Assembly (NCBI GenBank): GCA_016748015.1
Contig: JAAOMT010000586.1
Coordinates: 124,001-188,000, forward strand
Direction of reading: 5' to 3'
Source of the DNA: Geosiphon pyriformis uo1
Taxonomy: Eukaryota; Fungi; Glomeromycota
DNA: 64,000 bases
Numbering within the stretch: the stretch's first letter is position 1; each line of letters opens with the position of its first letter. The notes beneath the pieces are model-generated. The model was not told the origin of the DNA. It was given only the letters and a program-made list of their open reading frames with translations, and made no database searches. A program made the position numbers and the translations under genes. Positions 819 to 61,962 of the stretch are shown in pieces.

Positions 819-1711
819 TGTTACTCATAGAAATATAAGAAATATATTAGCATAATTATTAGCCAATCAGAAGTAAGTGTAGTAAATATAGAATTTCAGG
901 ATTCCTCTCAGGAATTACAAGATTCCAGGAATTTTAGGATTCCCAATGAGGAATTGCAGGATTCCAGAATTGCAGGATTCCTCTCAAAGAAATCACAGAA
1001 TTCCAGGAATTCCAGGATTCCTGTCATGAAGAATCAAGAAATTGAAGAATCCCAATTATGTATATATAGCAGTAGTGTTAGAAACAGAAAAAACAGAATC
1101 GATACCACAGAATCCTTAGCCAAGAAACCAATTATCAAATAAATAATTATTCCATATCTCAATCCACTATTCACTATCAACACTTCATGTTAATAGTAAT
1201 TGCTATTTAACCACGCTGGAACAATAGCTCTTGATCACGGCTATTGACAAGATACTAACAGACCAAATTGCCTTGGCTTATTTTCTTCATTTTCTTTATT
1301 TTTATTTTCTTTATTTTATTTCCTTTCTTTCTTTGATTTTGTTGTTGTATACTAATTGATTAAAAGATTAAGCGCTGAGTTATTAATGTCAAGGATAGCC
1401 TGGTAAAAGACCCAGAAATAAGGGTAAGATTTTATATATATTATTGGATAGCTTACCAGAAGGACATGACTGCCAGACTAAATCTGGCCACCATGCTGAG
1501 AAAGAAATTAGGAAAACCACTTGAAGATACAACCACTATCAACCTTATTGAATCTCTGTTCATTATACAAAGAACTCCACAACAAAAATCTTCAGATCAA
1601 CCAAAACCTTCAGATACCATACCTTCTGCACATTATCTATGAAAGTAGCTTTTGAGCACCAAGTTACGGGTTTGTTATTCAATTCCACAACAGAAATAAT
1701 CACCTATAACA
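819..1711 (+). repeat. 5' LTR of element B
   Basis: TGTTACTCA...CCTATAACA, direct repeat of the 3' LTR, followed by TT+TGG PBS. Confidence 0.95.
861..1070 (+). promoter_or_regulatory. Putative U3 promoter of family A LTR: CCAAT box, GGAATTCC/TTCCAG(G)AA repeat array, TATA-like box
   Basis: AGCCAATCAG 861-870, degenerate 8-9 nt repeats ~890-1040, TATATATAG 1061-1069. Same layout in the other family A LTRs. Confidence 0.55.
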
Positions 1712-1730
1712 TTTGGTGCTCCCTGTGAGG
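1712..1730 (+). promoter_or_regulatory. Primer binding site of element B (TGGTGCTCCCTGTGAGG)
   Basis: 2-nt spacer then TGG, complementary to a tRNA 3' end ...CCUCACAGGGAGCACCA. Resembles elongator tRNA-Met or tRNA-Ile(UAU); identity unverified. Confidence 0.85.
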
Positions 1731-1773
1731 TATAATCCTACAGAGAACCAACACCGACAACACCAAACCAAAA

Positions 1774-4700
1774 GTGGCAGAATCAGAAATTATAGGAGCA
1801 AACCATTTAGAATTCGCAAAATTTTTATTTTAACACTATTGTCAATACTTGGGATTAAACCACAATCATATATCTGCTGAATCAGCCTTCAATTTCTACA
1901 TCAATGAAAAAATTTTCTCTTTATTAGGAACACTAGTGAATATTGAATCAGCAAGAGAAACTTTCTATAAGGAATTAATTCAAAACACCAATCTACCAAC
2001 AAACCATAATTTTGCATTCATCATCACTAAGATCAACAAAGAAATTGAACACCACACTCAACAAAGATATCCAACTACATACACTAGTAAAGGCAAGGGA
2101 AAATTATAAATACCAGCAGTAACACCCAAAAAAATACAGCCACCTGCTTGGAAGAAAAACAGAGTTGAATCCCTAAGCAACCCATTCTACCACTATACAC
2201 CTGGAAGCACCATCAACATATCATCAACAGACGCATTTTCATCAACTGCGACATCAGCATTTGGACAATTTTTATTCCAAAGTAGACAAAGGAAAACAGA
2301 ATTGTTAGGACCATATGGCGAATACTTTGAAGGATTTAATTCGCAATCATCAACCCCATCAGGACTTCAATCACCACCACCTCCACCAGATTTCGGAATC
2401 TCTGATCTGTGGAAAGCAGCAGAATCAGAAAAGGAGGAAGAAAAATCAGAGGATCAAGAATTTACTTACCAGCACCCGATCACTGAAAACCTGGAAGTTG
2501 AAACCCCAAACCTTCAAACTCAGCAACAGTTAGAAAATCCAGAAATCAAAACTCCGAATATTCGAATGCCACCAAATCAAAGAAATCAAAAACCTGAATT
2601 AATTAATCAGCAAAACTTACCTTCAATAATCTTCATCAATCAACTGCCGATTAATTCCATAGCCGCCATACAGCAGCCACTTTAGCTACCACCCCAACAG
2701 CCAGGACAATAACAACTGCTTCAACAGCCACCACAACCACCTAACTTAGATCCAATGGCCTATGCACCAATTGCAAAACTTGACAACTTTATGGGCAAAA
2801 AAGATGACGCTCAAATATGGCTGAATAATGTAGAAAAGGCCATCACAGCCAATAGATGGAATGACACTTGAGTAATGCAAGCCATTCTCTACTTTCTCAA
2901 AGATACTGCCAATTCATGGTACCAGAGCTTGATTAATAAACCACAAGATTTTAATGCCTTCAAAGCGGAATTCCTAAGATACTTCAGCAACAATAACAGC
3001 ATCAATCGCCTAGTTAATACATTCACCACCATGAAACAAGGAGAAACTGAAGCAGTTACCACTTACCTGGGATGCTTCTATTGAAACCTACACCAAATTT
3101 AAGCAATTGATGCCAACTATTTCACAGCACCACAGATACTCAATCAGTTTATCTGTGGCCTGTGCAGTAGCATCTTGCAACATGTACGTCCGTTGCATCC
3201 AGGCACCCTTCAAGATGCAGTCACATGCACCAGAGATTTTGAATCTGCTGAGTCAGAGACTAACTATGCCCAAGCCATTAATCTAGTAATGAACAGATCA
3301 TCTGAATTGGATTCCAAATTGGAGAAGTTCAGTGAATTAATCAATAAGAGATTAGAAGGATACTTAGCTGACAATCATGCCATTTATCAGCCTCCACAAT
3401 GACGCAATAATCAAAGAAACTCTAATTGTGTCCAAAATCAATCACATCCATCTTCATCAACCAATTGACAGTGGCAACAGAAAACGCATATCTGCCACTA
3501 TTGTGGTAAACAAAGACATATCCAAATTGATTGTTGCCAGCGTTTAAATAACCAACGATCAAAAAATCAATATCGAAACCCCGATTGCCAGTTCCAAACT
3601 TTGAATCAGTACCCAAATCAAAACCCACCCACTTACCTACTAGTAACGCAGTCATTAGTCTATCAGTCTCCAGTATATCAACCTCTGATTTATTAGCCGC
3701 AGCCACAAGTAATATATCAACCACAGCCACAAATAATCTATCAACCCCAACAGATCCAAACACTGCCCCAAAGCTTACTACCCAACGGAACTCAAAGACC
3801 GAAAATGACTCAACAGAGCTGGAGATCGGCGATAGTAGTCCATCAACCGATCCCCAGTTCTTCACAGCAATCATCTGGATTATGCCAGCAGAATTTGGGT
3901 ACTGGTCAACTCCAGAACTCGAATTTCCAGAACTATTTAAGTCTTCTGGTCACTCCAGAAGACGCTTTAACCAATAACCCGGCATTTACCCAAAAACAAT
4001 TACTTACCAGTAATATCTTACCCACTACCATCATCGAAGACAAGTCATTGGCTGCTATCTTCTCATTCGAATTTGAGGAAACAGCTGCAATGCCATTATT
4101 TAGTGGAGCCGCTCTTGAAGCCAAACTAATTACCACGATGTACACCAACGCCAAAGTAAAAGGACAATCCATCAAATTAATTCTGGACAGCAGTTCTGCA
4201 GACAGCATAATCACAAGACAACTCATGGATCAATTAGGTTGCCGAGTTGATCAAGCTGCCAGCGCCAGAATCATTACAGCCAATGGAGTGACCAAAACTC
4301 CAATCAGCAAAATCAACGACTTTCCTTTTGAAGTCAATGACATCATGACTCTCATTAAAGTTCTAGTGATGAAAACCACTCAATACCAAGCTCTCGTTGG
4401 TAATGACTGGCTATCCAAAGTCAATGCAACGTTAGACTGGAACACCCAGGAACTCCAGCTAATGTATCAGGGCCAACACATACATGTCTTGGCCATGTGT
4501 GGCCACTTTAAAACTCCTCCAAGAGAGAAACTATTGATCAAACTGGAGGAGAAGAAAGAAAAACCTACCTGAGAAGCCTACCAAGTGTCATGGGCAGACA
4601 AAAAGCACAACAAACTACCGCCAATACTCTCTTGGGATGACAGCAACAAGAGAAAAGGGAAACAGAAGGAAGAACTTATCTGGAAAACTGATGACCTGAC

Positions 4701-7700
4701 ATGGACCGACAATGACAAGAGCAAACCGATGTCAAACTGGGAATGGGAAGAGAACAAAGAAAATAAAGGAAAAGAGAAAGAAGAAGAGACCACCCAAACC
4801 ACAACTATTTATAATACCTACACTATATCACAATAATCTACCTATCGTCGACCTAAGCTTATATGCATTGATTGCAGCAAGAAATTGTCATCAATGGGTG
4901 CATGCTGTGGGGACGATGAGGAATATTCAACGGCAACTAGGTTTTATTGCCACCCATGCGTTCTTGAACACTTTGGAAAACCAAAATGAGTAGGAAAATG
5001 GGACAATCAGCCATGCTTAGCTTGTGAAAAGACTCTCTTGGACGAAAAAATGTGGCATGACATTCCCGGACGGGGAGGAACGTGCAACATAGAGTGTCAA
5101 TACATGATTCTGATCAGCAACTGGATTAAAAAGGGGACACCCATCAAAGCCACTTGGCAAAGAGCAGTGTGACAATTAGACAGTTGTCCACATAACAACG
5201 ACGAAATTTGGAGAATGGCAACTGCCAAAATTGAAGGCATGTTGCCAGAAGAAATCCGGACAATTAAAAACAACCCACCAGAACCCATCAAGCTCAACTG
5301 GGACGCAGAGCCAGTTATAAATTTTCTAAAACCAGAAGAGTTCTATAAACACTACCAAAACTTGGCACCCACTAGAGAAAAGCAAGAACAATGGCTAGCA
5401 CAGTTAAATACAAAACTGTGTTGTCATTGTTTAATTCTCAGTAACTTCAAATATTGTGACGATTGTGACCTTATTTACAATCCACCACCATGCATGATCT
5501 ACTCAATCCTTGAAGAAGAAGAACCAATCAGCAGCTGTGCGTCGGAATCAGAATTGCTGATCAATCGCAATTCAGACTTTGACAATGATGATGAAAACAA
5601 CGGTTCTAGCTCTGTTTAAAATGGCAATGACGACAAAAACAATTCAGACTCAAATTCAAAACCTGATTTAAACTATAAACAATATATTGCACTACCAGAT
5701 CTCTCCAAAGAACAAGAGTTGAAATGATATAGTAACAATGGTGAAGGTATTATGCTAGAATGTATGCATGATATGGATGCAGGGTTTGATCTGAAATATC
5801 CAGGAAAAGTTGCCATCAAATTAGAACTGCATTCACACATCTGCATTGATTTGAAAATAACACTAGAGATTCCGGCAACAACAATAGTTCAATTAGCATT
5901 TAGGAGTAGCTTAGCAAAAAAAGGGATCAATATAAGAGGAGGAATAATTGACATGGGATATGTAGGAAATATCATCACCATGCTACAAAATGATTCAGAA
6001 AAGGCCTATATAATAGAGCCCAATGAAAAGATAGCACAGGCAATATTCTTGCCTCTGATTAGAGTAGCTCAGTTAGTGTCAGTAAGAAAGAGGGAGAAAT
6101 TAGGAATAACAGTAAGAGGGATACAAGGATTCGGATCAACGGGTAGAACAGATGTACTAGTTAATATGGCGAAAGAAGAAATTGTTGGCCAAAGAAAAAT
6201 TATCTCAACTGGTCAAGCTATTTCCATTCCACCATATAGCCAGTACATGTTAACAATAGAAAAGAAGGAAAAGGAGCAAGAACAGATTTTTGAAGCAGAA
6301 GCAACCCTTTGTGAATCAGAAGAGATTGGGTTGATCAATCTCCACATACCAGCCAAAAGCTATAGCAGCATAAAAATTCCCATCTACAACAATACTGACA
6401 ATGTCATCAGCATACCAGAAGGAACTACCATCGGATATTTAACCACAGAAATAGAAGACCAACCACCAAACCTCATTCCAGACTTTCCACAACTTTGTGG
6501 ATATGTTGACATCACATCACAAACAATCTATAAATAAGACGAATGTTATTTGCTCCAACCAGAACAATTGAAACAAATGAACATGGGAAACTTAGATCCA
6601 CTTCAATGTATGCAGCTCAAGATGTTACTCAACAATTTCAATGACATCTTTGCCAGCAAAAATGAGTTTGGCTGAACTGACATCATCCAGCATCAGATCA
6701 AGACTGGAGATGCAATGCCAATCAAACAAAGAGCATACAGAGTACCACCAGCCAGCCACGAGATTATTCATCAAGAAATAAACAGAATGCTTGACAACGG
6801 GCTGATTCAATTATTAATGAGTCCATAGTCATCACCAGTAGTACTCGTTCGAAAGAAAAATAGAAAAATCCAGTTTTGTGTAGACTACAAAAAACTCAAT
6901 GGTGTAACTTGTGGAGACAGTTATCCAACTCCATGAATACAAGAATTATTTGATGCTTTCAGTGGGAACAAATGGTTCTCTACATTAGATTTGGACAGTG
7001 GTTATTGGCAAGTAGCCATGAATCCAGCTGACAAAGAGAAGACAGCATTTACTACTAGAGAAGGGAATTTTGAATTTGAAGTGATGCCATTCGGCTTAAC
7101 CAATGCCCCAGCAACTTTCCAACGGCTAATAGAAATCGTTTATACTGGCTTATTGTAGAAATCAGTAGTTGTATACTTGGACGACACCAATGTATTCTCA
7201 AAGAAGTTTGATGATCATCTTCATCATTTTCAATAAGTGTTCGAAAAACTAAGAAGAGCAGGACTAAAGTTAAATGCAACAAAGTGCTTCTTTGACAAGA
7301 CAGAACTCAAATTCTTGGAACACATAGTCAGCAAAGATGGCATCAAAACAGATCCAGAGAAAATAGAGATAGTAAAAAACTTTCCAGTGCTGACCAATAT
7401 AACAGAACTGAAATCATTCTTGGGATTAACTAGTTATTATTGTCATTTTATCAAAAACTTTTCTAAGATAGCGCAGCCACTCAATCAATTACAAAACAAA
7501 AATGCAAAATATGAATGGACAGAAAGTCAACAAGAAGCTTTTGATATTCTGAGGAAAAAACTCATCCAAGCTCTAGTACTGATCTATCCAGATTACAGCA
7601 AACCATTTATTATCACTACTGATGCATCTGGCCAAGCATTGGGAGCAGTATTATTTCAGAGAGGACCAGACGGCAGAAAACATCCAGTAGCATATGCCAG

Positions 7701-7976
7701 CAGAGGTTTAACACCAGCTGAAAAGAATTATGGAACACCAGAACAAGAACACTTAGCAATATACTGGGCTGTCATGAAATGGAAAGAATACTTGAGCCAG
7801 AAGTTTGAAGTATACACAGATCACAAGAGATTAACATCACTCCAAAAACAAGAATTTTGAGATGAAAGACAGTTAAGATGAAAAATGGCACTTACACTAT
7901 ACAATTATACTATACATTACAAAAAAAAAAAGACAATGGAAATGCTGACAGTTTATTACAAATAAGACAAATCTAA
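1774..7976 (+). pseudogene. gag-pol: Element B ORF1: N-extension, capsid, CCHC, aspartic protease, Cys-rich module, dUTPase, RT, RNase H (one frame, broken by transition stops)
   Basis: Track fragments at 1849, 2302, 2875, 3175, 3805, 4585, 5215, 5752 and 7237 share one frame. Motifs: CHYCGKQRHIQIDC, LILDS(G)S, ALVGNDWL, YLDD (~7173-7185), TDAS, YTDHK, NAD.L..IRQI*. Confidence 0.92.
5752..6150 (+). CDS. dut: dUTPase domain within element B ORF1
   Basis: All five trimeric dUTPase motifs in order: DAGFDL, RSSLA, GGIIDxGYVG, EKIAQ, RGIQGFGSTG. Confidence 0.92.
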
Positions 7977-8039
7977 GAACATTTCAACCCAAAAATATAA
8001 TAAAACCAGAACAATACCAATGGAAAAATACAACAAAAG

Positions 8040-9422
8040 ATGAACATACAAAAATATCAACAATTGCAACATTATCTAAACACTCAACAGTTCAAGGAGA
8101 ATTTATCTCATACGGAATGAAGAAGTATCAAACAACAATCAAAATATTTTATCACTCACCAAAATATACTTTATCGGAAAAATAGAAAGGATTCAGATCA
8201 ACCAACCAGAGTAATTACGGAGCCAGAAAAAGATACAATATTATTCAACATGCACTCAAATCCAACAGCAGGACATTTTCACAAAGAAGCAACCATGGAA
8301 AGAACTAGAAAAAGATACTATTGGCCATCAATGTACCCAGACATCATTCAATATGTTCAAAATTGTGATGCTTGTCAGCGAAGAGGAGAAACAAGATCCA
8401 GTGAACTATTAAGACCAATCAAAGTGAGACAACCATTTGATCGTATGGAAATTGATTTAGTTGGATCATTAACAATCACCAGCAGAGAAAACAGATACAT
8501 AGCAGTAGCTATGAACTATCTCACTAAATGGCCAGAGGCAAAAGCAATTCAAAGAGCAGATGCAGAATCCATTGCCGAATTCGTTCATCAGAATTTGATT
8601 TGTTGACATGGATGTCCAAAAGAATTATTATCAGACCAAGGAACTCATTTTGTGAACAGAACATTAACAGAATTGAGCCAAAGATTCGGAATCAAAAGAC
8701 CATTATCATTACCATACTATCCACAAACCAATGGATTAGTAGAAAGATTCAACCAAACATTGTGTGAAGCAATAGCCAAGCTCAGTCAAGAAAACCAGAA
8801 CAATTGAGATTTGTTCATACCATCAGTACTATTTGCTTATCAGACAATGAAACAGGATACTACACAAGCAACACCATTTGAATTAGTATATGGGAGAATA
8901 GCAATGTTACCAGTAGAAAGAGAAATTAATACATATCCAGCTGAACCAATAACAGAGAAAAATTTTCAAGAAACATTGCTGAAAAGAACATATGACTTAA
9001 TGGAAACATTGGAAAACAAACAAAGAAGAGCAGCTGATAATATCCAAAAGTCACAAAAAACACAGAAAGAAAGACACAATAGTCAACTACCAGACAAACC
9101 AGTTGAATTTAAGATCGGAGACAAAATATTACTACATTGTACCAAAGCAGAAAAACAATGGAGTGGAAAATTTGACCCCAAATGGGATGGACCATTTCAC
9201 ATAGAAAAAATTCTAGGAAATGGAGCTTACAAATTAAGATTGGATAACAAAATTTTAACCAAAGCAGCACATGGAGATCGACTGAAATCATATCACAACA
9301 TCACATTACTATCTACCAGTAATATTCCACAATTAAGAGTACAGAGAATACTAGTCCAACCAGATGAAATTCCATGAGATCTGGAACCAATCATTATTAT
9401 CAACAACAACATGTTAAATTGA
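8040..9422 (+). pseudogene. int: Element B ORF2: stand-alone integrase (HHCC, DDE core, GPF module, no chromodomain)
   Basis: ATG 8040 follows the RNase H stop. MHSNPTAGHF...CDACQ, IDLVG, SDQG, ERFN, WDGPF. Confidence 0.9.
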
Positions 9423-9446
9423 TCCATCAAAAGAATATATAAAGAC

Positions 9447-10106
9447 ATGGTAGACATGACAGGAAATATCAAAAAAATGGAAATTACAGACAACATTCAC
9501 TCACTAGCACAACAACTCTTTCAATTAATCCAACACTAGGAAATGGAGATTACAATCAATCAACAAACCATTTGATATCAAGATACTAGAAAAACATTTC
9601 AACTCAGAACACAAAAGAAAACTGAAAATACTATGGACAAAATCATGGCGAAAGTAAAATTAGCAATAAAAAAATCAACAAAAGAGTCACTATATTAAGA
9701 GTTGACTAAAGAAACTTGGAATTGGTGGATACAACAATTTCCACGAAACTATTGTTATTTTTACTTGGGACAACATGTAAATATCCAGAATCTATATATG
9801 GATAAAACAAAGTGATTATTCGACAAAAGAATACTACAACAATTAAAACATTTTGTGAGAAAGAACAATTTATCCACACAAGCCCAAGCCATATACCAAA
9901 TACACACAGTATTTCAAGATAAACCAGAAATATTGCTCAATAGAGCAATGAATAGGGTTATCAGTAATCAATTGGGAAAAATCACCAATGCTCAATTTGA
10001 AGAATTACAGACCCAAATAACACAAGTAATTCTTGAAAACGAAATCCAGAAAATACTTCAAAAGAGGGAATTACATGAGTTAGATTTCAATGGAGCTCAA
10101 TATTAA
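9447..10106 (+). pseudogene. Element B ORF3, unknown ~220 aa protein
   Basis: One frame with a few stops explicable as transitions; homologous to regions in A, C, F, G, H and I; ends LDFNGAQY* overlapping the PPT. Confidence 0.8.
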
Positions 10107-10119
10107 AAGGAGAGAATAA
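10105..10119 (+). promoter_or_regulatory. Polypurine tract of element B
   Basis: AAAAGGAGAGAATAA immediately before the 3' LTR TG. Confidence 0.85.
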
Positions 10120-10328
10120 TGTTACTCATAGAAATATAGGAAATATATTAGCATAATTATTAGCCAATCAGAAATAAGTGTAGTAAATGTGAAATTCCAG
10201 GATTCCTCTCAGGAATTGCAGAATTTTAAGAATTTCAAGATTCCCAATGAGGAATTGCAGGATTCCAGAATTCCAGGATTTTTCTCAAAGGAATCATAGG
10301 ATTCCAAGAATTCCAGGATTTCTGTCGT

Positions 10329-11060
10329 TGTTACGGGATGGTTTTCTTGTTATATTTAATTGCTGATATCCCGCTTTAATTGCAATCAGTCTTTCGTGAG
10401 TTCCTCAATTCTATTTGTGTGATAATGTCACTGTTACACTGAAGGCTTTCTTTTTACTGTTGCGATGTAAGTTATTCTTTAATTCTTGATTGTTGTGTGT
10501 GTTTATGTACTCCTTCTCAGAGGCTGAACTGAAATCTACCCACTGTCTGGGGTCTTCTCTGAGGCTATCCTTGCAATTGCCTGATGTGTTTCTCTAATCT
10601 AGAAACACAGAATGTTAATGGTCTTTAGCGCTTTTCTAATTCTTACAATAAAGCTTTTATCAATNNNNNNNNNNNNNNNNNNNNNNNNNNNNNNNNNNNN
10701 NNNNNNNNNNNNNNNNNNNNNNNNNNNNNNNNNNNNNNNNNNNNNNNNNNNNNNNNNNNNNNNNNNNNNNNNNNNNNNNNNNNNNNNNNNNNNNNNNNNN
10801 NNNNNNNNNNNNNNNNNNNNNNNNNNNNNNNNNNNNNNNNNNNNNNGAAAATACTTTCTTTTTGATATTTCAACCTGGTGCTTGCTGCTATCACCAGTTG
10901 GTGTTGGCTGCTATTGTGAACTGGTGCTTGCCACTATCGCGAGATGGTGTTTGCTACTATGTTAATCATTACCTTTCTAAGATTATTACTGTGCTATATT
11001 ATGATTGAATAGTTTGTATTATTTTTATGATTCTTTTTGCTAAATTCTTAAACCGTAACA
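10329..11060 (-). mobile_element. Family H LTR insertion (apparent solo LTR spanning an assembly gap), TSD TCGT
   Basis: Reverse complement of 51582-52447; TCGT at 10325-10328 and 11061-11064; N-gap 10665-10846. Confidence 0.9.
10665..10846. other. Assembly gap (182 N)
   Basis: Run of N. Confidence 1.
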
Positions 11061-11779
11061 TCGTGAAGAATCAAGAAATTGAGAAATCCCAATTATGTAT
11101 ATATAGCAGTAATGTTAGAAACAGAAAAGACAGAATTGATATCACAGAATTCTTAGCCAAGAAACCAATCATCAAATAAATAATTATTCCATATCTCAAT
11201 CCATTATTCACTATCAACACTTCATGTTAATAGTAATTGCTACTTAACCACGCTAGAACAATAGCTCTTGATCATGACTATTGACGAGATACTAACAGAC
11301 CAAATTGCCTTGGCTTATTTTCTTTATTTTCTTTATTTTTATTTTTTTTATTTTATTTCCTTTCTTTCTTTGATTTTGTTGTTGTATACTAATTGATTAA
11401 AAGATTAAACACTGAGTTATTGACGTCAAGGATAGCCTGGTAAAAGACCCAGAAATAAAAGTAGGATTTTATATATATTATCAGATAGCTTACTAAAAGG
11501 ACACGACTGCCAGACTAAATCTGGCCATCATGCTGAGAAAAAAATTGGGAAAACCACTTGAGGATACAACCACTATCAATCTTATTGAATCTCTGTCCAT
11601 TATACAAAGAACTCCACAACAAAAACCTTCAGATCAACCAAAACCTTCAGATACCATATCTTCTGTACATCATCCATGAAAGTAGCTTTTGAGCACCAAG
11701 TTACAGGTTTGTTATTCAATTCCACAACAGAAATAATCACCTGTAACATCGATCATGTCTTTATATACTCTTTTGTTGT

Positions 11780-13162
11780 TCAATTTTATGTATTTGGTTT
11801 AATGATTATGATTGGTTCTCAGTCTCGTGGAATCTTATCTGGTTGGACTAATATTTTTTGTACTCCCAGTTGTGGAATGTTATTGGTAGATGCTGATGCT
11901 ATCTGGTAATATGGTTTTAGTCAATTACCATGTGCTGCTTTGGCTAAGATTCTGTTATCTAGTCTTAATTTGTAAGCTTTATTTTCTAGAATTTCTTTTA
12001 TGTGAAATGGTCTGTCCCATTTGGGGTCAAATTTCCCACTCCATTGTTTTTCTGCTTTAGTACGATGTAAAAGTACTTTGTCTCTAATCTTGAATTCAAC
12101 TGGTCTGTCTGGTAGTTGGTTATCATGCCTCTTTTTTTGTTTCTCTTGTGTCTTTTTAATATTATCAGCTGTTCTTCGTCACTTGTTTTCTAGAGTTTTC
12201 ATTAAATCATATGTTCTTTTTAGTAACATTTTCTGAAAATTGTCTACAATTATTGGTTCTGTTAGATAAGTATTGACTTCTATTTCAACTGGTAGTGTTG
12301 CTGTTCTACCATATACTAATTTAAATGGTGTTGCTTGTGTAGTATCTTGCTTTATTGTCCAATAAGCCAATAGTATGGATGGTATAAACAAATCCCATTC
12401 GTCTTGGTTTTCTTGGCTGAGTTTTGCTATTGCTTCACACAATGTTCTATTAAATCTTTCAACTAATTCATTGGTTTGTGGATGGTATGGTGATGATAGT
12501 GGTCTCTTAATTCCGAATCTTTGGCTTATTTTTGCTAATGTTTTATTCACAAAATAGGTTTCTTGGTCTGATAATAGTTCTTTTGGACATCCATGTCAAC
12601 AAATTAAATCTTGATGAACGAATTTGGCAACAGATTCTGCATTTGCTCTTTGAATTGCTTTTGCTTTTGGCCATTTTGTAAGGTAGTTCATGGCTACTGC
12701 AATATATCTGTTGCCTCCACTGATAATTGTCAATGGTTCAACTAAATTAATTCCAATGTGGTCAAATGGTTGTTCCACTTTGATTGGTTTCAATGGTTTG
12801 CTGGGTCTTGTTCCTTCTCTTCTTTGACAAGCATCACAATTTTGTACATATTATATGATGTCTGGATACATTGATGGCCAATAGTATCTCTTTCTGGTTC
12901 TTTCCATGGTTGCTTCTTTATGAAAATGTTCTGCAGTTGGATCTGAGTGCATGTTGAACAGTATTGTTCCCTTTTCTGGTTCTGTAATTACTCTGGTTGG
13001 CTGATCTGAATCTTTTCTATTTTTCTGATAAAGTATATTTTGGTAGGTGATAAAATATTTGGATTGTTGTTTGATTCTCTTTTGTTCCAGTTGAGATAAT
13101 TTCTTCTTGAACTGTTAAGTATCTATATAATGTTGAAGTTGTTGATATTTTTGTGGGTTCAT
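11780..13162 (-). pseudogene. int: Element A ORF2 integrase
   Basis: ATG at 13162 (MNPQKYQQLQHY); fragments 12596..12793 and 12179..12550 with INLV, PYHPQTN, ERFN. Confidence 0.88.
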
Positions 13163-13223
13163 CTTTTGTTATATTTTCGTGAGTATTGTTTTGGTTTTGT
13201 TATATTTTTGGGTTGAAATGTCC

Positions 13224-16200
13224 TTAGATTTGTCTTATTCGTGATAAACCATCAGCATTTCTGTTGTCTTTTCTTTTTTTATAATGTATAGAATAATTAT
13301 ATAGTGCGAGTGCCATTTTCCATCTCCAAATTCTTGTTTTTGGAGTGATGTTAATCCTTTGTAATCTGTGTACACTTCAAACTTCTGGCTCAAGTATTTT
13401 TTCCATTTCATGACTGCCCAGTATATTGCTAAGTGTTCTTGTTCTAGTGTTCCATAGTTCTTTTCGGCTGGTGTTAAACCTTTGCTGGCATATGCTACTA
13501 GATGTTCTCTGTCATCTGGTCCTTTCTGAGATAGTACGGCTCCTAATGCTTGGCTGAATGCATCAGTGGTAATGATGAATAGTTTGCTGTAATCTGAATA
13601 GATCAGTACTGGAACTTAAATGAGCTTTCTTTTCAGAATATCAAAAGCTTCTTGTTGACTTTCTGTCCATTCATATTTTGTATTCTTGGTTTGCAGTTGG
13701 TTGAATGGCTGCACTATCTTGGAAAAGTTCTTAATAAAACATCGATAGTAGCTGGCAAATCCCAAAAATGATTTCAGTTCTGTCATATTGGTCAGCACTG
13801 GAAAGTTCTTTACTATCTCTATTTTCTCTAGATCCGTTTTAATGCCGTCTTTGCTGCCTATGTGTCCCAAGAATTTTAGTTCTGTTTTGCCAAAGAAGCA
13901 CTTTGTTGCATTTAACTTTAGTCCTGCTCTTCTTAGTCTTTTGAACACTTGTTGAAAATGATAAAGATGATCATCAAATGTTTTTGAGAATACATTGGTG
14001 TCATCCAAGTATACAACTACTGATTTCCACAATAAGCCAGTATAAACAATTTCCATTAGCTGTTGGAAAGTGGCTGGTGCATTGGTTAAGCCAAATGGCA
14101 TAACTTCAAACTCAAAGTTTTCCTCTCTTGTGATAAATGCTGTTTTTTCTTTGTTGGCTGGATCCATAGCTACTTGCTAATAACCACTATCTAAGTCTAA
14201 CATTGAGAATCATTTGTTTCTACCAAAAGCGTCAAATAGTTTTTGTATCCATGGAGTTGGATAGCTGTCTCCACAAGTTACACTATTTAGTTTTCTATAA
14301 TCTACACAAAATTGGATCTTTCCATTCTTTTTATGGACAAGTACTACTGGTGATGACCATGGGTTCATTGATGGCTGAATTAACTCATTGTCAAGTATTC
14401 GGTTGATCTCTTGACAGATGATTTCATGGCTGGCTGGTGGTACTCTGTATGCATGCTGTTTGATTGGCATTGCATCTCCAGTCTTGATTTGATGTTGAAT
14501 GATGTCAGTTCTGCCAAATTTGTTTTCACTGGCAAAAATGTTATTGAAATTGTTGAGTAACATCTTGAGCTGCATATATTGTAGTGGGTCTAGATTTCTT
14601 ATATTCATTTGTTCTAATTGTTCTGGTTAGAACAAATAACATTTGTCTTGTCTATAGATTGTTTGTAATGTGATGTCAACATATTTACAAAGCTGTAAAA
14701 AGTCTGGAATGGGGTTTGGTGGTTGATCCTCTATTTCAGGGTTTAAGTATCCCATGGTAGTTCCAGCTGATATCACTATGACATTTTCTGTGTTGTTGTA
14801 GATGGGAATTTTGATGTGGCTGTAATCTTTGGCTGGTATGTGGAGATTGATGAGTCCAATCTCTTCTGATTTGCAAAAGGTCAGTTCTGCTACAAAAATC
14901 TGATTCTGTTCTTTTTCCTTCCTTTTTATTGCTAACATATACTGACTATATGATGGAATAGAAATAGCTTGATCAGTTGAGATAATTTCTTTTTGGCCAA
15001 CAATTTTTTCTTTCACCATATTAGGTATATCTATTCTACCTGTTGATCCAAATTCTTGTATTCCTCTTGTTGTTATCTCTAATTCCTCTCTTGTTCCCAC
15101 TGACACTAAGCTAGCTACTTTGATTAGTAGCAGGAATATGGCCTGTGCTATCTTTTTATTTGGCTCAATAGTGTAAGTCTTTTCTGAATCATTTTGTAGC
15201 ATAGCACTGATATTTCCTGTATATCCTGCATCCACTATTCCCCCTCTAATATTAATCCTTTTTTTCACTAAACTACTCCTAAATGCTAACAGAACCATGG
15301 TTGTTGCTGGGATCTCTAGAGCTATTCTCAGATCAATGCATACTTGCGCATTTGGCTCCAATTTGATGGCATCTTTTTTTGGATATCTCAGATTAAACCC
15401 TGCATTAGTATTATGCATGCATTCTGGCATGATACCTTCCCCATTGTTACTATACTATTTCAACTCCTGCTCCTTGGAGAGATCTGGTAGTGCAATATAT
15501 TGTTCATAGTTTGTATTGGAGTTTGGATCTGAGTTGGAATTATTGTTGTTGTTATTGCTATTTTGAATGGAGCTTGAATCATTGTTGTCATTGTTGTTGT
15601 CAGAGTTTGAATCACAATTGATCAGCGATTCTGATTCTGATGTGCAATTGCTAATTGGTTTTTCTTTTTTAGAGATTGTGTAGATCATGCGTGGTGGTGA
15701 ATCGTAAATGAGGTTACACTTATTACAATATTGAAAGTCACATGGAATTAAACAGTAGTCACATAGCTGGGTGTTTAGCTGTGCTAAGCACTCTTCTTGT
15801 TTTTCTCTTATGGGTGCTAGTTACTAGTAGTGCTCATGAAATTCCTCTGAATTGTCTTTGATGTTGCCAAAAACATTGAAAGTTTGGACATATTCAGGCT
15901 TAGGTAGAAATAGTGGGTTGTTTTTAATTTCTCTCAGCTCCTCTGTTGTAGCATCTTCTGATATAGCATATGCCATTCTCCAGATCTCATCTTCATTGTG
16001 TGAGTATCCTTCTAGGCATCTTAATGCTTGCTTCCAGACGTTGTTGATGGGAGTTTCCTTTCATACCCAGTGATTGATCAGAATAGTGTATTGGCATGTC
16101 TTGTTATATGCTTCTCCTCTTCCAGAAATGTTTTTCCACATCCCTTCATCTAAGAGGGTATTTTCACAAGCTAAACACAAGATACTGTCCCATTTTCCTA

Positions 16201-19200
16201 TTTTTGGTGGTCATCTATCACATTCAAAGACACATGGACAACAGTAGTACTCAGTTACTGTTGTCCATTCTTTGTTCTTACTACAGCATATGTTCATTGT
16301 TGACAGTTTCTTGTCACAACTGATGCATACAAGTTTGGGTTGACAGTAAGTGTTTTAAAGTGGTGTTGCATATGGAATATGAGTAAAGAAAGTGGTTTGT
16401 TTTGGTTCCTCTTCCTGTTTCTTTCCTTTTCTCTTTTCTTCCCAACTCCATTCAGTGGCTGGTTTGCTTTGGCTGTCATCACTCCATGATCTTTGGTTTG
16501 TTCCCCAGGTAAGTTTTTCTTCTTCTTTCCTCTTTCTTTTGTCATTTCATAAGAGTATGGGTGGCAATTTGTTGTCGTTGTTGGCCCATGAGACTTGGTA
16601 AGCTTCTCAGATAGGCTTCTTTTCTTCTTCTTCCAGCTTTATCAATGGTTTCTCTCTTGACGGAACTTTAAAGTGGCCACATATGGCTGGCACACGTGTG
16701 TATTGACCATTGACACTTAGTTGGAGCTCTTGCATTATCTAGTCTAAAACAGTATTGGTTTTGGACAGCCAGTCATTACCAACTAGAGCTTGGTATTGGA
16801 TGGCTTCCATCATCAAGACTTTGATAAGAGTGATGATGTCATTAACTTTAAATGGAAATTCATCTATCTCGCCAATAGGCATTTTGGTCATTCCATCAGC
16901 TGTGATGATTCTGGCACTGGCAGCGCAATCAACTCAGTGATCTAATTGGTCTATAAGTTGTTGTGTGATAATACTATCTGCTGAACCACTGTCGAGAATC
17001 AATTTGATAGATTGTCTATTGACTTTGGCATCTGTGTACATTATGGTGATTGGTTTGGCTTCAAGAGTGGCTCTACTAAATAATAGCATTGCAGTTGTTT
17101 TCTCAAATTTGAATGGGAAGATAGCAGTCAAGAACTTGTCTTTAGTAATAGTAGCAGGTGGGATATTACTGGTAAGTGATTGTTTTTGGGCAGATTTTGG
17201 GTTATTGGCTAAGGTGTCTTCTGGAGTGATCAGGAGACTTAAATAGTTCTGGGAATTCAGGTTCTGGGGTTGACCAGTATCCAAATTCTGCTGGTGTAAT
17301 TCAGATGGTTGCTGTGAAGAACTGGGGATCGGCTGATGGACTACCATCACCGATCTCCAGCTTTGTTGAGCCATTCTCAGTCTTTGTGTTCTGTTGGATG
17401 GTAAGTTTTGGGGCAGTGTTTGAATTTGTTGGGGTTGATAGATTATTGGTGGCTGTGATTGTTGATAAATTACTTATAGCTGCAGTTAATAAATTGGAGC
17501 TTGATATACCAGAGGCTGATAAATTGATTGCTGCGTCATTGGTACATAATGAGGTAAGTGTTGGTATTGTTTTTGATTTTGCTGGGAACTCGAAGCTGGG
17601 AACTGGTAATCGAAGTTTTGATATTGATTTCCTGATTGTTGGTTATTTAAATGCTGGCAGCAATTGACTTGTATGTGTTCTTATTTACCACAATAGTGGC
17701 AAACACGTGTTTCTTGTTGCCACTGTTGATTGGCCGAAAATAATGGACGTGACTGATTTTGGATGCAATTAGAGTTTCTCTGATTGTTGCATTGTTGTGG
17801 TGGTTGATAGATTGTTCGATTGTCAGCTAAGTATTCCTCTAATTTTTGATTAATGAAATCACTGAATTGTTTTAATTTAGAATCCAATTCAGATGATCCA
17901 TTTATTACTAGATTAATGGCTTGGGCATGGTTAACTTTGAGTTCAGCTACTTCAAAATCTCTGGCGTTAGTGACAGCTACTTGTAAATCTGCTGGGTGTA
18001 GTGGACGTACGCACTGGAGAATACTATTGCATAAGCCTCTGATAAACTGATTTAAAATTTGGGCCACTGTAAAATAATCAGTATTGATAGCTTGGATCTG
18101 GCACAAGCATTTATGGAATCGTCCCAAGTATGTGGTAACGGCTTCAGTATCCCCTTGTTTGATGATAGTAAAAGTATTTACCAAACGGTTGATACTGTTA
18201 TTATTACTGAAATATCTTAGGAACTCCTGCTTAAATATGTTGAATGTTTGAGGTTTTGTAGCTAAGCTTTGATACCACAAATTCGCGGTATCTTGGAAGA
18301 AATATGGGATTGCCTGAAGAGCTCTGTTGTCATTCCAATTGTTTGCTGTAATTGCTTTGGCAACGTCATTCAATCAAGCTTGAGCATCATTCTCTTCACC
18401 GGTGAATTTTTCTAATTTGGTGATTGGTGCATAGGCCATCAGTACTATAGGTTACTGGGGCTGTTGAAGTGGTTGTTGTATGGGTTTGGTTATTGAATTA
18501 ATTGGCAATTGATTGATGATGATTACTGGAGGTAAGTTTTGCTGATTAATTAATTTGGGATTTGGATTGTTCTGCCTTTGATGATTTGGAGTTTCTATTT
18601 CCAAATTTTCTAGATTTAGATTTTGCTGAGTTTAAAGATTCGGGGTTTTAACTTCCAGGTTTTCAGTGATTGGGTTTTGGTAAGTAAATTCTTGATCTTC
18701 CGATTCTTTTTCCTCTTCTTCTTCAAATAGTTCCCATAGGATAGCAGTTCCAAAGTCCAGTTGAGGCAGTGGTGATCAAATTCCTAATAGTGTTGGTGAT
18801 TATGATTTAAATCTTTCAAAATATTTGCCGTATGGTCCTAATAACTCTGTTTTCTTTTGTTTACTTTGGAATAGAAATCATCCAAATGTTGATGTCACAT
18901 TTGATGTGGACACGCTTGTTGATGTTATATTGATGGCACTTTCCAGTGTGTAGTAATAGGATGGGGCAGTTGGTAATTCAACTCTTGTTTTCTTCCAAGT
19001 GAGTGGTTGTATCTTTTTGGGTGTTACTGCTGATGTTTGTAGTTTTCCTTTGCCTTTACTGGCATAAGTAATTGGATACTTTTGTTGGGTGTGATGTTCA
19101 ATTTCTTTGTTGATTTCAGTAATAATGGAGGCAAAATTGTAATTTGTTGGTAGGTTGGTATTTTGAATTAATTCTCTGTAGAAAGTTTCCCTGGCTGCTT

Positions 19201-19372
19201 TAGTATTCACTGGTGTTCCTAACAAAGAGGAAATTTTTTTGTTGACATAGAAATTAAAGACTGATTTGGCAGATATATGATTGTGATTTAATCCCAAGTG
19301 TTGATAATAATGTTGAAATAGAGATTTCACAAATTCTAAATGGTTTGTTCCTATGTTTTCTGATTCTGCCAC
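13224..19372 (-). pseudogene. gag-pol: Element A ORF1 gag-PR-Cys module-dUTPase-RT-RH
   Basis: Fragments 18878..19372, 17681..18373 (capsid, VCHYCGK), 16934..17374 (LILDSGS), 14627..15430 (dUTPase), 13616..14167 (YLDD); ends ADGLSRIRQI* at 13224. Confidence 0.92.
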
Positions 19373-19434
19373 TTTTGGATGGTGTTTGTTGGTGCTGGTT
19401 CTCTGTAGGATTATATCTCACAGGAAGCACCAAA

Positions 19435-19808
19435 TGTTACAAGTGATTATTTCTGGTGTGAGAATAAATAACAAACCTGTAACTTGGTACTCAAAAGCTA
19501 TTAATTTCTGTTAATATTGGTAATCTGAAGGTCTTATGTGATCTGAAGAGTTTTGGTGGAGTTCTTTGTATAATGAACAGAGATTCGACTGTATTTGTAA
19601 TAGTCTTCAGAATCGCAATTCCATCCAATTTCTTTCTCAGCGTGAAGGCCGGATTTAGTCTGGCAGTTGTGCCCTTTTGGTAAGCTATCCAATAATATAT
19701 AAAATTCTACCCTTATTTCTGGGTTTTTTACCAGGCTATCCGTGATGTCAATAACTCAACACTTCTAATTCTTAATCAATTAGTATACAACAACAAAACA
19801 ACACAAAG

Positions 19809-19839
<31 letters not shown>

Positions 19840-20292
19840 GAAATAAAGAAAATAAGCCAAGATGATTTTGATTTGTATCCCGTCAATAGTCATGATCAAG
19901 AGCTATTGTTCCAGTATGGTTAAGTATGTGCTATTATCAACATAAAATGTTGATAGTTGGGAAAGAATTTGAGATAGTGAATAATTATTTATTTAATATT
20001 TGTGATGTGAAAGATTGCTTAGAGGGAATCTAAACTTCCAAGATCTGTCTTTTCAGCTTTTAATTCTACTGCTATATATACATAATTGAGATTCCTCAAT
20101 TTCTCAATTCCTTACAACAGGAATCCTGGAATTCTGGAATCCTGTGATTTTTCATCAGAGAATCCTGAAATTTCTGGAATCCTGCAATTCCTTTGAGAAG
20201 AATCCTGGAATTCCACATTTACTATGTCTTCATCTGATTGGCTAATATCTACTAACTAATAATACTATATTTCCTATATTTTATGAGTAACA
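19435..20292 (-). repeat. 5' LTR of element A
   Basis: Family A LTR in reverse orientation, adjacent PBS TGGTGCTTCCTGTGAG. Confidence 0.93.
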
Positions 20293-21153: not shown

Positions 21154-22147
21154 TGTTACTAGAGATTTTTGGTCTCTTTTTTTGAATGTTTTTAATGTCT
21201 GTTTGCTGTGAATTTACATTTATTGAAAGTTATTAAATCTTTGATAACTGAATTTATTTTCAAATTATCTCTTATAATTTGAACTACTGAATTTATAAGT
21301 AAAATAGCCAATTTCATGCTAGTTACTTTGTATAGTTATGTTGTGTAAATGTCAACTTTTTTTCAGAAATTATTTGTCTAAAAGTTCACTAAAAATGTGT
21401 AGTTACTTTGCTGTAAAAGTTAACTCTTCTACAGGAATCTTATCTGTAAACTATTCTAATAAATATAATAAAAAAAATAAAAAAAAATGTAAAAAAAATA
21501 GAATTTTCCAAAAAAAACATTTTCTATTCAGGCCTGAAGTTACTAACAAATTTTACTGAAATTGGTAGCTAATCAATTTCAAAAATGTTAATTGAGTTTA
21601 AAAAATTTCAAGTATAATAATTAAAGATTTTTGGATTTTTAAATATTTGATTTTTTTTTATTTTAATTTGTAAAAGTGTGTAAAAAATGATTGATTCTAA
21701 TTAAAATATCTAAAATAAGATATATTTTCTTGAAAAGAAAAGCTTTTTTTTATACAACTTGTTGTAGTACTAGTTTTTGAACTTGTACTTTTTTCTTTGT
21801 TATTGTTTTTAATGAACTAAAAATACATTTTGATAAACTAAAAATATATTTCAGCAAACTACAAGTTATTTTAATGAACTATTAATTATTTTGGTAAATT
21901 ATTTATTATTTCAGCAAATTTTTACAAATTTTAACAAATTCTTAAATATTAAGTAATTTAGAGTATTGTGTAATTTAATCATCTTAATTTCTATAGTACA
22001 AATCGGATTATTAATTAAATAGTAATATTTAATAATTTGATTAAATAATAAGTAATAATTGAAATGATTAATAATATATGCTAATTAATAATAAAAATTA
22101 TAAAGATAATTTCATGCTAGTTAATAGCTAAAATTCTACTAGTAACA
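21154..22147 (-). repeat. 3' LTR of element C (family D)
   Basis: TGTTACTAGAG...CTAGTAACA, collinear with element I LTRs. Confidence 0.85.
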
Positions 22148-25100: not shown

Positions 25101-25559
25101 AACTTGTTTTTTCAAAGTGACATTTTTCAATGTTTAACTTTAATCCTGTTTTTTGTAATTATTAAAAAACTTTTTGTAGGTAGATTAAATAGGCTTTGAA
25201 ACTTAGAAAGTATATATTAGTGTTATCTAAGTAAATAATTACTAATTGCTATAAAAGTTTTTTGTATACAATATCTATAAGTTGCTAAAATATTGCTGGT
25301 GTATTACAAAGTCCAAAAGGCATAACATTGAATTTGTAAATTTTTTTTGTGTAGTAAATGCTATTTTTAGTCAATTTTTAAAGTTTATTTTAACTTGCCA
25401 ATATCTGCTTTTCAAGTCTAAAATTGAAAAAAACTTGGCTTTTTTCAGAGCATCTAGTATATTGTTAATTCTTGGTAAAAGGTATATATCTCCAATTGTG
25501 ACACTATTTAATTGTCAATAGTCTATATAAAATCTAATTTTGCCATTTTTTTTTTATGA
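21154..25559 (-). mobile_element. Element C: heavily decayed Gypsy element (LTR family D); 3' part only, interrupted in RT by element E
   Basis: LTR 21154-22147 homologous to 60982-61958; PPT-like tract; ORF3 remnant ~22150-22830; integrase 24374 to ~23000; RH/RT 24433-25559. Confidence 0.85.
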
Positions 25560-27525: not shown

Positions 27526-27539
27526 TTATCCCTCTCTTT

Positions 27540-28330: not shown

Positions 28331-28357
28331 TCCCTAATTTAATTTGTTGCACATTGT

Positions 28358-29721: not shown

Positions 29722-29731
29722 GGATCTGAAA

Positions 29732-36505: not shown

Positions 36506-36566
36506 TTTTGTGTATCTCTGGGGTGCTCTGTCTCTGTGGATTTATAACTTCACAAAGAGCACCAAA

Positions 36567-37550: not shown

Positions 37551-37644
37551 CCAGCAACCAACTATTAACAAAATTAGCCTTCAACTTTTATGTTAATGAA
37601 AGAATTAAATATTTTTTAAGTGAACCAATAAATACAGAATCCAT

Positions 37645-61958: not shown

Positions 61959-61962
61959 CTGC

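Follow-up and report, generated by a model that had tools for sequence, protein, structure and literature searches.

The window analysed here, a 64,000-nt stretch of Geosiphon pyriformis DNA, carries at positions 819-11748 a decayed Ty3/Gypsy LTR retrotransposon, element B, all of whose features lie on the forward strand. It is flanked by a TCGA target-site duplication (TSD; 815-818 and 11749-11752, no length but 4 matches) and has the hallmarks of the superfamily: direct LTRs with TG...CA ends, a primer binding site (PBS), a polypurine tract (PPT), Gypsy-type reverse transcriptase (RT) and RNase H (RH), a GPY/F integrase (IN) and, with protease (PR), the order PR-RT-RH-IN (Pfam). The 893-nt 5′ LTR (819-1711) contains a TATA-like motif near 1061 and a T-rich tract followed near 1350 by an ATTAAA-containing motif, likely a poly(A) signal and found at the same position in the E-family LTR. 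It is followed by the PBS (1714-1730), which begins with TGG. The 3′ LTR (10120-11748) is 92.8% identical to its partner and is interrupted by an E-family LTR on the reverse strand (10329-11060; TSD TCGT). An assembly gap within this insertion (N, 10665-10846) could conceal an internal region.

The main frame of B begins at a likely GUG (AAAA-GTG-G) and opens with a four-helix N-terminal domain (1774-2100), both located 5′ of the first in-frame ATG. It then holds the Gag capsid (Retrotrans_gag, Ty3_capsid) with a CCHC-type knuckle near 3493 (2755-3560), an aspartyl protease (4090-4560), a Cys-rich module with several CxxC motifs (4840-5520), a dUTPase (5650-6150; PF00692, E 2e-20) and RT, with YLDD at 7174, plus RNase H (6541-7976, ending with TAA at 7974-7976). 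The Cys-rich module is without a Pfam match in B and recurs in 6/6 window copies covering that region. From the GTG at 1774 the frame shows 24 stops in 2049 codons, compared to 139 and 131 in the alternative frames. It reaches ~7920, beyond the 7860 to which an earlier note had followed it, and there an A-run frame slip confined to the B copy shifts the last 14 codons before the true end at TAA 7974. A 63-nt A/C-rich, G-poor spacer (7977-8039) leads to a free-standing integrase ORF (8040-9422, ATG at 8040, four internal stops) made up of an N-terminal extension resembling the YPYY region, an HHCC finger, a DDE core and a GPF/SH3 module; its nearest solved integrase is that of Ty3 (7q5b, E 1e-50). 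A chromodomain (PF00385) was not found after the GPF/SH3 module, in agreement with the earlier note, and the integrase ends ~75 codons past GPF in all copies read. Nor was a second, archaeal-type RNase H, a Tat/Chronos/Archon trait, found in B. ORF3 (9477-10106; 209 codons, with internal stops in the B copy) overlaps with its stop the PPT (10105-10119), and each of the window's four families has its ORF3 ending at the PPT.

The other elements are nested around B. Element A, of the same family (11753-20292, reverse), received B in its IN/ORF3 junction, its ORF3 and the start of its 3′ LTR continuing at 1-814. Element H (21154-25559, reverse) is a very decayed F-family copy comprising part of RT, RH, IN, ORF3 and the 3′ LTR, and element I (25560-26554, forward) is an A/B-family 5′ LTR with PBS and GTG leader cut by the insertion of D. 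Element D (26555-37550, reverse), a complete element of a second family, carries a B-family solo LTR (31729-32705) within its dUTPase, while element C (37628-45071, reverse) belongs to the A/B family and has its 5′ part cut off at the insertion of E. A third family is represented by E/G (45072-64000, forward), which runs off the window and is split inside RT-RH (45072-51204 and 61959-64000) by F, the complete member of a fourth family (51205-61958, reverse), which has an E-family solo LTR (51582-52447) in its 3′ LTR. LTR identity is 64-86% within the A/B/C/I family but 46-49% between families, against 42-45% for shuffles, so the description of four diverged families with barely alignable LTRs was accurate. 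The same is true of the 4-bp TSDs, found in 6/6 insertions with both ends readable (TCGA, TCGT, ACAA, CCAG, CTGC, ACGT). The contrast drawn with the 5-bp TSDs of chromoviruses carries little weight because the elements are not chromoviruses and because 4-6 bp is the general Ty3/Gypsy range in the part of PMC12440569 consulted.

All window copies are heavily mutated, and the differences within LTR pairs are almost only transitions. A third-position transversion excess in capsid, protease, dUTPase, RT and integrase nevertheless indicates past selection on protein; the evidence of selection is weak in the N-terminal region (P 0.008 for transitions, P 0.19 for transversions), and ORF3 gives a mixed picture (P 0.001-0.4). 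A single Gag-to-RNase H frame, claimed for the lineage by the earlier note, is directly visible in B, A and D, whereas in E and in F the frame is continuous only if one single-base slip per element, within sequence that is otherwise conserved, is allowed for; we read these slips as decay. The proposed GUG start is likely for the window's sub-lineage since the motif is present in 6/6 leaders and in the Gag frame in 5/5 checkable copies. The domain that follows is 22-25% identical across families and its predicted structure in copy A has a pLDDT of 81.5 and a pTM of 0.76. Several upstream ATGs precede the weak GUG in the B leader, so that plain scanning does not explain Gag translation.

The break between RNase H and integrase

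A stop, a spacer and an ATG separate RNase H from integrase in 7/7 window copies belonging to four families, and the integrase is thus free-standing as the earlier note had it. It is encoded apart from the Pol polyprotein, against the usual Ty3/Gypsy layout (which is not a taxonomic criterion), and this split is the unusual feature of the lineage. The spacers measure 63, 61, 29, 10, 40, 29 and 58 nt, the shortest being that of D, and cover all three phases, which argues against a fixed readthrough or frameshift. They contain 5% G and are AUG-free in 6/7 copies; a purine occupies position -3 of the integrase ATG in 6/7 copies and of the ORF3 ATG in 5/5 (the ORF3 ATG of D reads ATA).

Introns inside pol regions are known from plant Ogre elements, and one removing the stop and spacer would restore a normal fused RT-RH-IN Pol. 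In favour of such an event, the integrase ATG of A, B and C immediately follows an AG, with a branch-like motif upstream. However, the D spacer has just 10 nt, those of F and E/G are devoid of AG, and no consensus donor was seen before the stop. The integrase Met and its -3 purine are kept, and 19 relatives have long conserved coding tails past RNase H, each ending at its own stop (no RNase H match in the tails of the 17 tail-bearing relatives scanned). We therefore regard an intron as very unlikely.

Database relatives bear directly on the nature of the break. Among the best 120 long RT-RH matches, 47 were classed as ending at RNase H or after an IN-less tail; 45 of these, together with six window rows and one fused protein (P0168), form a 52-row group with an SH-aLRT of 99, and when a subset of 65 rows was analysed with a mixture model the split-type group received 97. 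The integrase tree contains a matching group (SH-aLRT 99). Support for both groups is given as SH-aLRT only, with no bootstrap values, and the tree references are database matches, not curated GyDB entries. The integrase search was restricted to 244-779 aa and, as gene callers also begin proteins at Met, is biased toward free-standing matches; with this bias, the best 120 are all Met-started, with the Met 74-79 residues before the HHCC histidine in 92 (78 in B), and all lack the RNase H end motif. Identical longest-contig sizes, in a comparison of 27 IN with 43 polyprotein rows, suggest that seven IN/polyprotein pairs lie on the same contigs. At locus L013 the RH-tail and stop are followed by a ~100 nt spacer, an intact 409-aa integrase, another spacer and an intact 146-aa ORF whose end is at a PPT, and then by LTR, PBS and Gag.

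These relatives refute the idea that the separate ORFs are an artefact and the stop just another decay mutation among the many that dead copies collect. The state of the window copies, with the 24 stops of B and their transition-dominated LTR differences, might invite this reading, but the stop has the same position in all seven copies while the spacer lengths vary; above all, 45 intact IN-less polyproteins group with the window copies, free integrases form a matching clade and an independent contig has the same three-ORF plan. Decay as the source of the split is hardly credible.

The three-ORF layout is conserved and clusters in one clade of both trees, and the earlier view of an old, selected plan agrees with its persistence in four families, the transversion excess and the intact relatives. 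The lineage extends well beyond the window, with dozens of database relatives; those named, from Geosiphon pyriformis (an ORF3 piece 86% identical), Rhizophagus irregularis and R. clarus, are all Glomeromycota, on which the clade is likely centred. One lineage inside it, P0168 and P0327, has RNase H fused to integrase; the split is therefore not universal, but it is clade-wide apart from these. ORF3 is probably clade-wide as well. The full combination put forward in the earlier note as a defining trait does not hold up: the 45 split-type relatives have a dUTPase in 4 cases, a NUDIX domain in 2, no match to the Cys module and Gag in the RT frame in 22, and most full-length ones are ATG-started. 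About ten clade members start 110-190 aa before the protease, without capsid, and the single Gag-RNase H frame is thus not clade-wide. The dUTPase and Cys module are local, and the GUG start is nearly so.

ORF3 and the production of integrase

The ORF3 product is, according to prediction, soluble and mostly helical. No hydrophobic or membrane segment was detected in six sequences, two intact homologues of the window family among them (maximal 19-residue hydropathy 0.30-1.29), and ORF3 thus lacks a segment fit for a transmembrane anchor, which speaks against the signal peptide and anchor expected of an env-bearing, errantivirus-like Gypsy. With the structural model (pLDDT 73), Foldseek found nothing at E 0.001 and the best Z was 6.1; neither an env or capsid fold nor a known transactivator was matched. 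The term "virus-like" used earlier is accordingly justified only in the sense valid for any Metaviridae element. Comparison of the L013-type ORF with window ORF3 is suggestive of homology (hhalign P 0.018, with the score reached by 1 and by 5 of 500 shuffles), two other comparisons being not significant or weak. We take it to be a soluble accessory protein, not an envelope; a role as adaptor or regulator would be a guess.

We consider it probable that these elements form a non-chromoviral Ty3/Gypsy clade, likely Glomeromycota-centred, whose polyprotein ends after RNase H while integrase and ORF3 are separate genes, likely with their own subgenomic RNAs. The full-length RNA would yield one Gag-PR-(Cys)-dUTPase-RT-RH protein, to be cut by the protease; its start in the window's sub-lineage is likely the GUG. 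Each Gag would bring an RT, and with integrase outside the polyprotein its dose would be set separately. Integrase and ORF3 would be translated from subgenomic RNAs, spliced or internally started; rather than through a Gag tether, free integrase would reach the cDNA by attaching to RNA, to RT or to the TG...CA ends, and it would cut with a 4-bp stagger.

For the route of integrase production itself, judged from sequence, a subgenomic RNA has about an even chance, reinitiation on the full RNA is a lesser though real possibility and any other route is improbable. Spliced messages are described as the typical source of downstream ORFs in LTR elements in the part of PMC5408684 consulted. We found no splice acceptor conserved in position across families, AG being absent from the F and E/G spacers, and no conserved splice donor in the leaders; the branch-like motif close to the end of RNase H is dictated by the protein sequence. 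The same layout might alternatively be served by one full-length RNA for all three ORFs, with ribosomes stopping after RNase H, scanning a short unstructured spacer and restarting at the ATG of integrase; ORF3 might assist, by analogy with the caulimovirus transactivator. Short spacers (10-63 nt; ~100 in L013 and L014), G-poor, AUG-free and leading to a good start context, would suit this mechanism, as would the missing conserved splice signals and a soluble ORF3 placed last on the genome, and initiation must already be unusual, given a long leader, ATGs upstream and a non-AUG start. On the other hand, the restart would have to follow a 2,000-codon ORF, past which reinitiation is normally inefficient in eukaryotes. 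Moreover, a TGGGA TURBS-type motif occurs in 0/7 copies (120 nt before the stop), stop and start do not overlap, ORF3 resembles no known transactivator, and the T-rich tracts and branch/AG-like site before the L013 integrase fit separate transcripts. We hold restart on a single RNA to be possible but doubtful.

The integrase of LTR retrotransposons and retroviruses normally enters the particle through fusion to Gag-Pol. A whole clade without this fusion must express, package and dose its integrase otherwise, which makes the rule testable. The clade has intact members, among them integrases annotated in Rhizophagus irregularis, for which RNA and small-RNA data are available. Free integrases of the clade are annotated as host genes or transposases, and tools requiring a fused pol would miss or mislabel the elements.

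Comparison with known systems

Ylt1 has one Gag-Pol frame and a 4-bp TSD. The published comparisons that follow rest on portions of the papers cited. Ylt1-like elements and SN_1006 (PMC2864245, PMC3248453) are, like the present ones, fungal and non-chromoviral, and a YPYY motif is reported in Gypsy-1-I_RO of Rhizopus (PMC2836005), with the integrases of our clade beginning with a similar stretch. The clade could belong to a lineage described before, either Ylt1-like or that of the YPYY integrases with Gypsy-1-I_RO and DGLT-A, its split layout recorded in Repbase or a paper. An LTR expansion has been reported from G. pyriformis, at 41.2% of the genome (PMC11952901), and the clade likely accounts for part of that in Glomeromycota. 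Yet the portions consulted do not mention a separate integrase ORF: in the fungal surveys the ORFs described are gag and pol, with no Glomeromycota genome named, papers on transposable elements of arbuscular mycorrhizal fungi go no deeper than superfamily level, and no separate integrase is reported for Ylt1-like elements or SN_1006 either. Our literature searches found no published description of the split layout, in line with the earlier note, which knew of no described clade with this combination, and we think a prior description unlikely. Publications already record dUTPase, a single Gag-Pol frame and 4-bp TSDs as traits; the RH|IN split was found in no published clade.

Fungal chromoviruses, including PosPlaTy3 of Postia and Tmt1 of Tuber (PMC2864245), share the fungal host, and PosPlaTy3-5 (PMC2864245) the dUTPase between protease and RT. 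The window elements differ in having no chromodomain, a 4-bp TSD and a split pol. Their RT-RH and integrase stand apart from chromodomain rows in both trees (in that of RT-RH, P0137, P0141 and P0147 on a separate branch, P0222 also outside the split-type group), which together with the missing chromodomain rules out a chromovirus. Bdelloid rotifer elements (PMC5408684) share the dUTPase position and a non-env ORF3, some also an extra Zn motif before RT or the lack of a gag-pol frameshift, but they have a canonical fused PR-RT-RH-IN pol, and their ORF3 types (GDSL, DEDDy, TM, coiled-coil) are not matched by ours. Troyka, which mostly has one Gag-Pol frame, has CG termini, a 3-bp TSD, no GPY/F, a fused integrase and animal hosts only (PMC12440569), and is ruled out by the TG...CA ends, 4-bp TSD and GPF of the window elements.

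YPYY-motif Gypsy integrases (Athila/Tat, Cer1, Gypsy-1-I_RO, DGLT-A1) and Ginger1 share with ours a ~400-aa unit with a YPYY-like stretch, H2C2, DDE and GPY/F; the motif is described as ~40 aa just before the H2C2 finger, and Ginger1 DNA transposons as having a free-standing integrase-like gene, TGT termini and a 4-bp TSD (PMC2836005). Compared by eye with that wording, our integrases have a conserved aromatic-Pro-aromatic-aromatic pattern in the 75-78 aa before the first His, and a free YPYY-type integrase bears on the relationship of Ginger1 transposases to Gypsy integrases. In contrast to Ginger1, the window integrase is part of an LTR element that also encodes Gag, RT and RNase H, without terminal inverted repeats or an OTU/Ulp1 domain and without CCGG/CCGT-specific TSDs; LTRs, RT and six varied TSDs rule out a Ginger1 DNA transposon. 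By analogy one might still picture a large undescribed fungal Gypsy clade turned polycistronic, with a non-AUG Gag-RT start, ORF3-driven restart at a free integrase as in caulimoviruses and untethered integrase on the cDNA ends, whose stand-alone YPYY/GPY-F integrase with 4-bp stagger would be a living intermediate from Gypsy to Ginger1; we rate this as quite improbable. With Ty3/Gypsy (Metaviridae) at large the elements share TG...CA LTRs, a tRNA-type PBS, the PPT, the order CA-NC-PR-RT-RH-IN and the GPY/F module, and the clade differs by an integrase outside Pol and a third conserved non-env ORF, the window's sub-lineage in addition by its likely GUG start and extra N-terminal domain.

The separation of integrase from RNase H

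Element B, a Ty3/Gypsy retrotransposon of the window, has a layout that represents a real and conserved organisation within this group. The integrase (IN), described as free-standing in the earlier note, indeed stands alone: in all seven copies (7/7) RNase H (RH) stops at one and the same codon after an LSR-type motif and is followed by TAA, a spacer and an ATG. In agreement with this, Pfam places the integrase of element B in a second ORF apart from the Gag-RH frame, and integrase stops at most about ten codons from a conserved EPII-type motif. The codon-position test likewise bears out the supposed past selection, with three separate ORFs affected. The RH-IN spacers measure 63, 61, 29, 10, 40, 29 and 58 nt and all three phases are represented, a pattern incompatible with a fixed readthrough or frameshift. 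Integration occurred with a 4 bp stagger. We infer that a Gag-to-RH polyprotein would be processed by its own protease and that IN and ORF3 would be initiated independently.

How the downstream ORFs might be expressed can be judged from the sequences around them. The reading we favour, with about an even chance of being right, is that IN and ORF3 would be made from subgenomic RNAs, since spliced messages are the usual route for downstream ORFs of LTR elements (PMC5408684, in the part consulted) and since T-rich tracts and an acceptor-like site lie 5′ of IN in L013, an independent locus from a prokaryote genome contig. No splice signal is kept in position across the window copies. The spacers are A/C-rich, with 5% G, mostly lack an AUG and have a purine at −3, and no TURBS-type motif is present in the window copies; synthesis of IN by reinitiation would be a tentative alternative to the subgenomic RNAs.

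The integrase query retrieved 599 proteins of 244–779 aa, a length range that favours free-standing forms; the best 120 of them all start with Met and 92 are in register with element B. Because of this bias, longer proteins were also searched with RT-RH, giving 7561 matches; among the best 120 of these, 27 end directly after RH and 20 have a tail of ~90–410 aa without IN. The RT-RH tree was built from 118 of these 120 proteins (P0142 and P0159, short matches, were omitted) and six window rows (E has none and G is too short). In this tree, 45 of the 47 IN-less proteins join the window rows and the fused protein P0168 with an SH-aLRT support of 99, while the other 70 rows, a ‘fused or other’ class that includes chimeric gene models, fall outside this 52-row group. 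The RH|IN split is found in 51 of the 52 rows, and is thus nearly clade-wide. The same group was obtained with a mixture model on a 65-row subset (SH-aLRT 97), and a matching one (SH-aLRT 99) in a tree of IN sequences from three window copies, 24 selected free integrases and 31 fused proteins (two dropped). The fused proteins P0168 and P0327 are nested within the latter on a long branch and keep a Met where free integrases begin; they have possibly re-fused RH and IN.

Named members of the lineage come from Geosiphon pyriformis (the closest), Rhizophagus irregularis and R. clarus, which makes Geosiphon or a close glomeromycotan the likely host; most relatives are metagenome proteins. L013 and L014, at 46–47% identity, were the only loci assigned to the lineage among 76 from prokaryote genome contigs. 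The order in L013 is intact: RH tail, stop, IN, ORF, PPT, LTR, PBS and ATG-Gag. In both loci (L013, 1–4638; L014, 1–1435) the retroelement DNA is of fungal type and sits in bacterial bins of metagenomes. L013 is built around a single LTR at which one unit ends and another begins, an arrangement that a tandem array, a circular molecule or a collapsed assembly would give. When metagenomes were scanned with part of the RT, eight loci of 31–39% identity emerged, none of this lineage, and a viral scan yielded only four weak integrase matches.

Nested families and their decay

The interval 819–11748 singled out in the earlier note corresponds exactly to element B (5′ LTR 819–1711; 3′ LTR 10120–11748; TSD TCGA). 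Its 3′ LTR is split by an LTR of another family (10329–11060), which holds the sole N gap of the window, and the element itself sits in the IN/ORF3 junction of A, a relative on the opposite strand. The window consists of nested LTR retrotransposons of one clade, with B in A, D in I and F in E/G, and further LTRs inserted within B, D and F. We noticed no host gene across positions 1–64000, and Rfam gave no match within 1–21000. The four diverged families proposed before are recovered from eight elements or fragments (A/B/C/I, D, E/G and F/H), with LTR identities between families of 46–49% as compared with 42–45% for shuffles. Equally, TSDs are exactly 4 bp in all six insertions with both ends readable; three of the six have a central CG.

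No window copy remains functional. Comparison of the paired LTRs of B (819–1711/10120–11748), D (26555–27525/36567–37550) and F (51205–53052/60982–61958) gives 236 transitions versus 4 transversions, with C-to-T change at 74% of CpG sites and also at 16–25% of CpA, CpC and CpT. This pattern suggests methylation-driven or RIP-like change beyond CpG, and dating these LTRs with a normal clock would give ages that are too high. The contigs of run X1 contain very many diverged copies in which change is solely transition-dominated. Element H (21154–25559), an F-family copy at 19–25% GC, is much more decayed than its neighbours.

The Gag-to-RNase H frame, its likely GUG start and ORF3

In stop-read-through translations of element B, Pfam detects capsid, protease (PR), dUTPase, RT and RH in one frame opening at GTG 1774. 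The single Gag-to-RH frame proposed for this element is upheld by 24 stops in 2049 codons versus 139 and 131 in the other two frames. An AAA(A)GTGG motif occurs 45–80 nt 3′ of the LTR in 6/6 leaders, and its GTG matches the Gag frame in all five leaders where the frame is traceable. Just 5′ of the GTG is an in-frame stop, and the first in-frame ATG comes only ~200–310 codons 3′ of it. Translation of Gag likely starts at this GUG in the window elements, since the ~100 following codons are kept as protein across the four families (22–25% identity) and the N-terminal domain of copy A has a predicted four-helix fold (pLDDT 81.5, model from five sequences). The codon-position test gave a weak signal in this region. 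A splice donor at the GTG was ruled out by its poor consensus and the constant frame. A second sub-lineage, the P0157 cluster (same length in 8 of 12 members) and P0158, has a GTG called in register. The GUG start proposed earlier is likely for the window, given motif, frame and conserved N-terminal protein, but is not clade-wide: most full-length relatives, and L013, have an ATG start and a different N-terminal domain, to which homology of the window domain is not detectable. The window domain gave no fold match (best Z 6.7, with no matrix protein among those listed).

Other features lie along this frame. Within the low-complexity Gag-PR linker, a 141-codon overlapping frame is open at 3552–3977; it shows no selection signal between B and A and is probably a by-product of composition. 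Between dUTPase and RT, a second conserved segment of ~130 aa (6151–6540) is under selection and has no Pfam match; a similar stretch seems to be present in P0168. The B-family and E-family LTRs, otherwise barely alignable, share a TACTAAT...AAAAG motif at about position 530 (1350–1366; 45604–45619). It contains ATTAAA or AATAAA, likely a poly(A) signal, and is also legible as a branch point plus AG.

In each of the four families, ORF3 follows another spacer of variable length and terminates on the PPT; identities between families are 19–33%. The window type gave 83 matches, of which most are closely similar fragments and two (P0317, P0321) are more distant homologues in intact form; the shorter ORF3 of L013 type is weakly similar to it. 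ORF3 is probably not an envelope protein, since it has no hydrophobic segment and no fold match; it matches no Pfam family. Its top Atlas match is a cluster most common in Mucoromycota (0.94). An Atlas assignment as closterovirus coat protein (0.93, 156/256 features, recognition below threshold) was dismissed.

Clade-wide traits and comparison with described elements

Several traits listed for element B are local. Gag lies in the RT frame in the window element but in only 22 of the 45 split-type relatives; about ten of these begin shortly before PR and may have a separate or frameshifted gag. Similarly, the dUTPase and the Cys-rich module between PR and dUTPase are present in element B but are not clade traits (4/45 and 0/45). 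The dUTPase lies between PR and RT in three relatives and after RH in one, and NUDIX is found in two. Nucleotide-sanitising enzymes were gained at differing sites (P0163, P0165; P0160, P0169, P0184; P0219), namely NUDIX before PR, dUTPase between PR and RT, and dUTPase after RH.

One sub-lineage (P0161, P0164, P0172, P0178, P0179, P0199 and others; L013 100–1149) has a His/Cys motif in the N-terminal domain of its Gag and, after RH, an acidic Cys/His-rich tail of 200–400 aa, which matches no Pfam family and contains a conserved CxxxC-ENHH-H-YC-xC motif. No relationship was detectable between this tail and the window Cys module, and a scan of post-RH tails ruled out an extra RNase H.

The earlier note knew of no described clade with this layout. 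None was found in the literature searched, neither a Gypsy clade whose integrase has its own ORF nor one with a GUG-started Gag, most subscription journals, supplements, Repbase, GyDB and REXdb being outside its scope; the split-integrase organisation is apparently undescribed. The parts consulted of PMC10508981 and PMC2774666 contain no match to such a clade, and those of PMC2836005 cover Ginger1 and YPYY integrases. Papers on AMF handle Gypsy at the superfamily level, as far as the sections consulted extend (PMC11075540, 10.1101/2021.03.30.436303, PMC11952901, PMC13465315). From similarly partial sources, the norm for such elements is one or two ORFs and 4–6 bp TSDs (PMC12440569), the chromoviruses and Ylt1-like elements of fungal surveys have gag and pol ORFs (PMC2864245; PMC3248453), and a dUTPase between PR and RT is known in fungal elements (PMC2864245; PMC6431247). 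Of the combination of traits put forward initially, the RH|IN split stands as the core and the apparently new part, while the remainder are local or already published.
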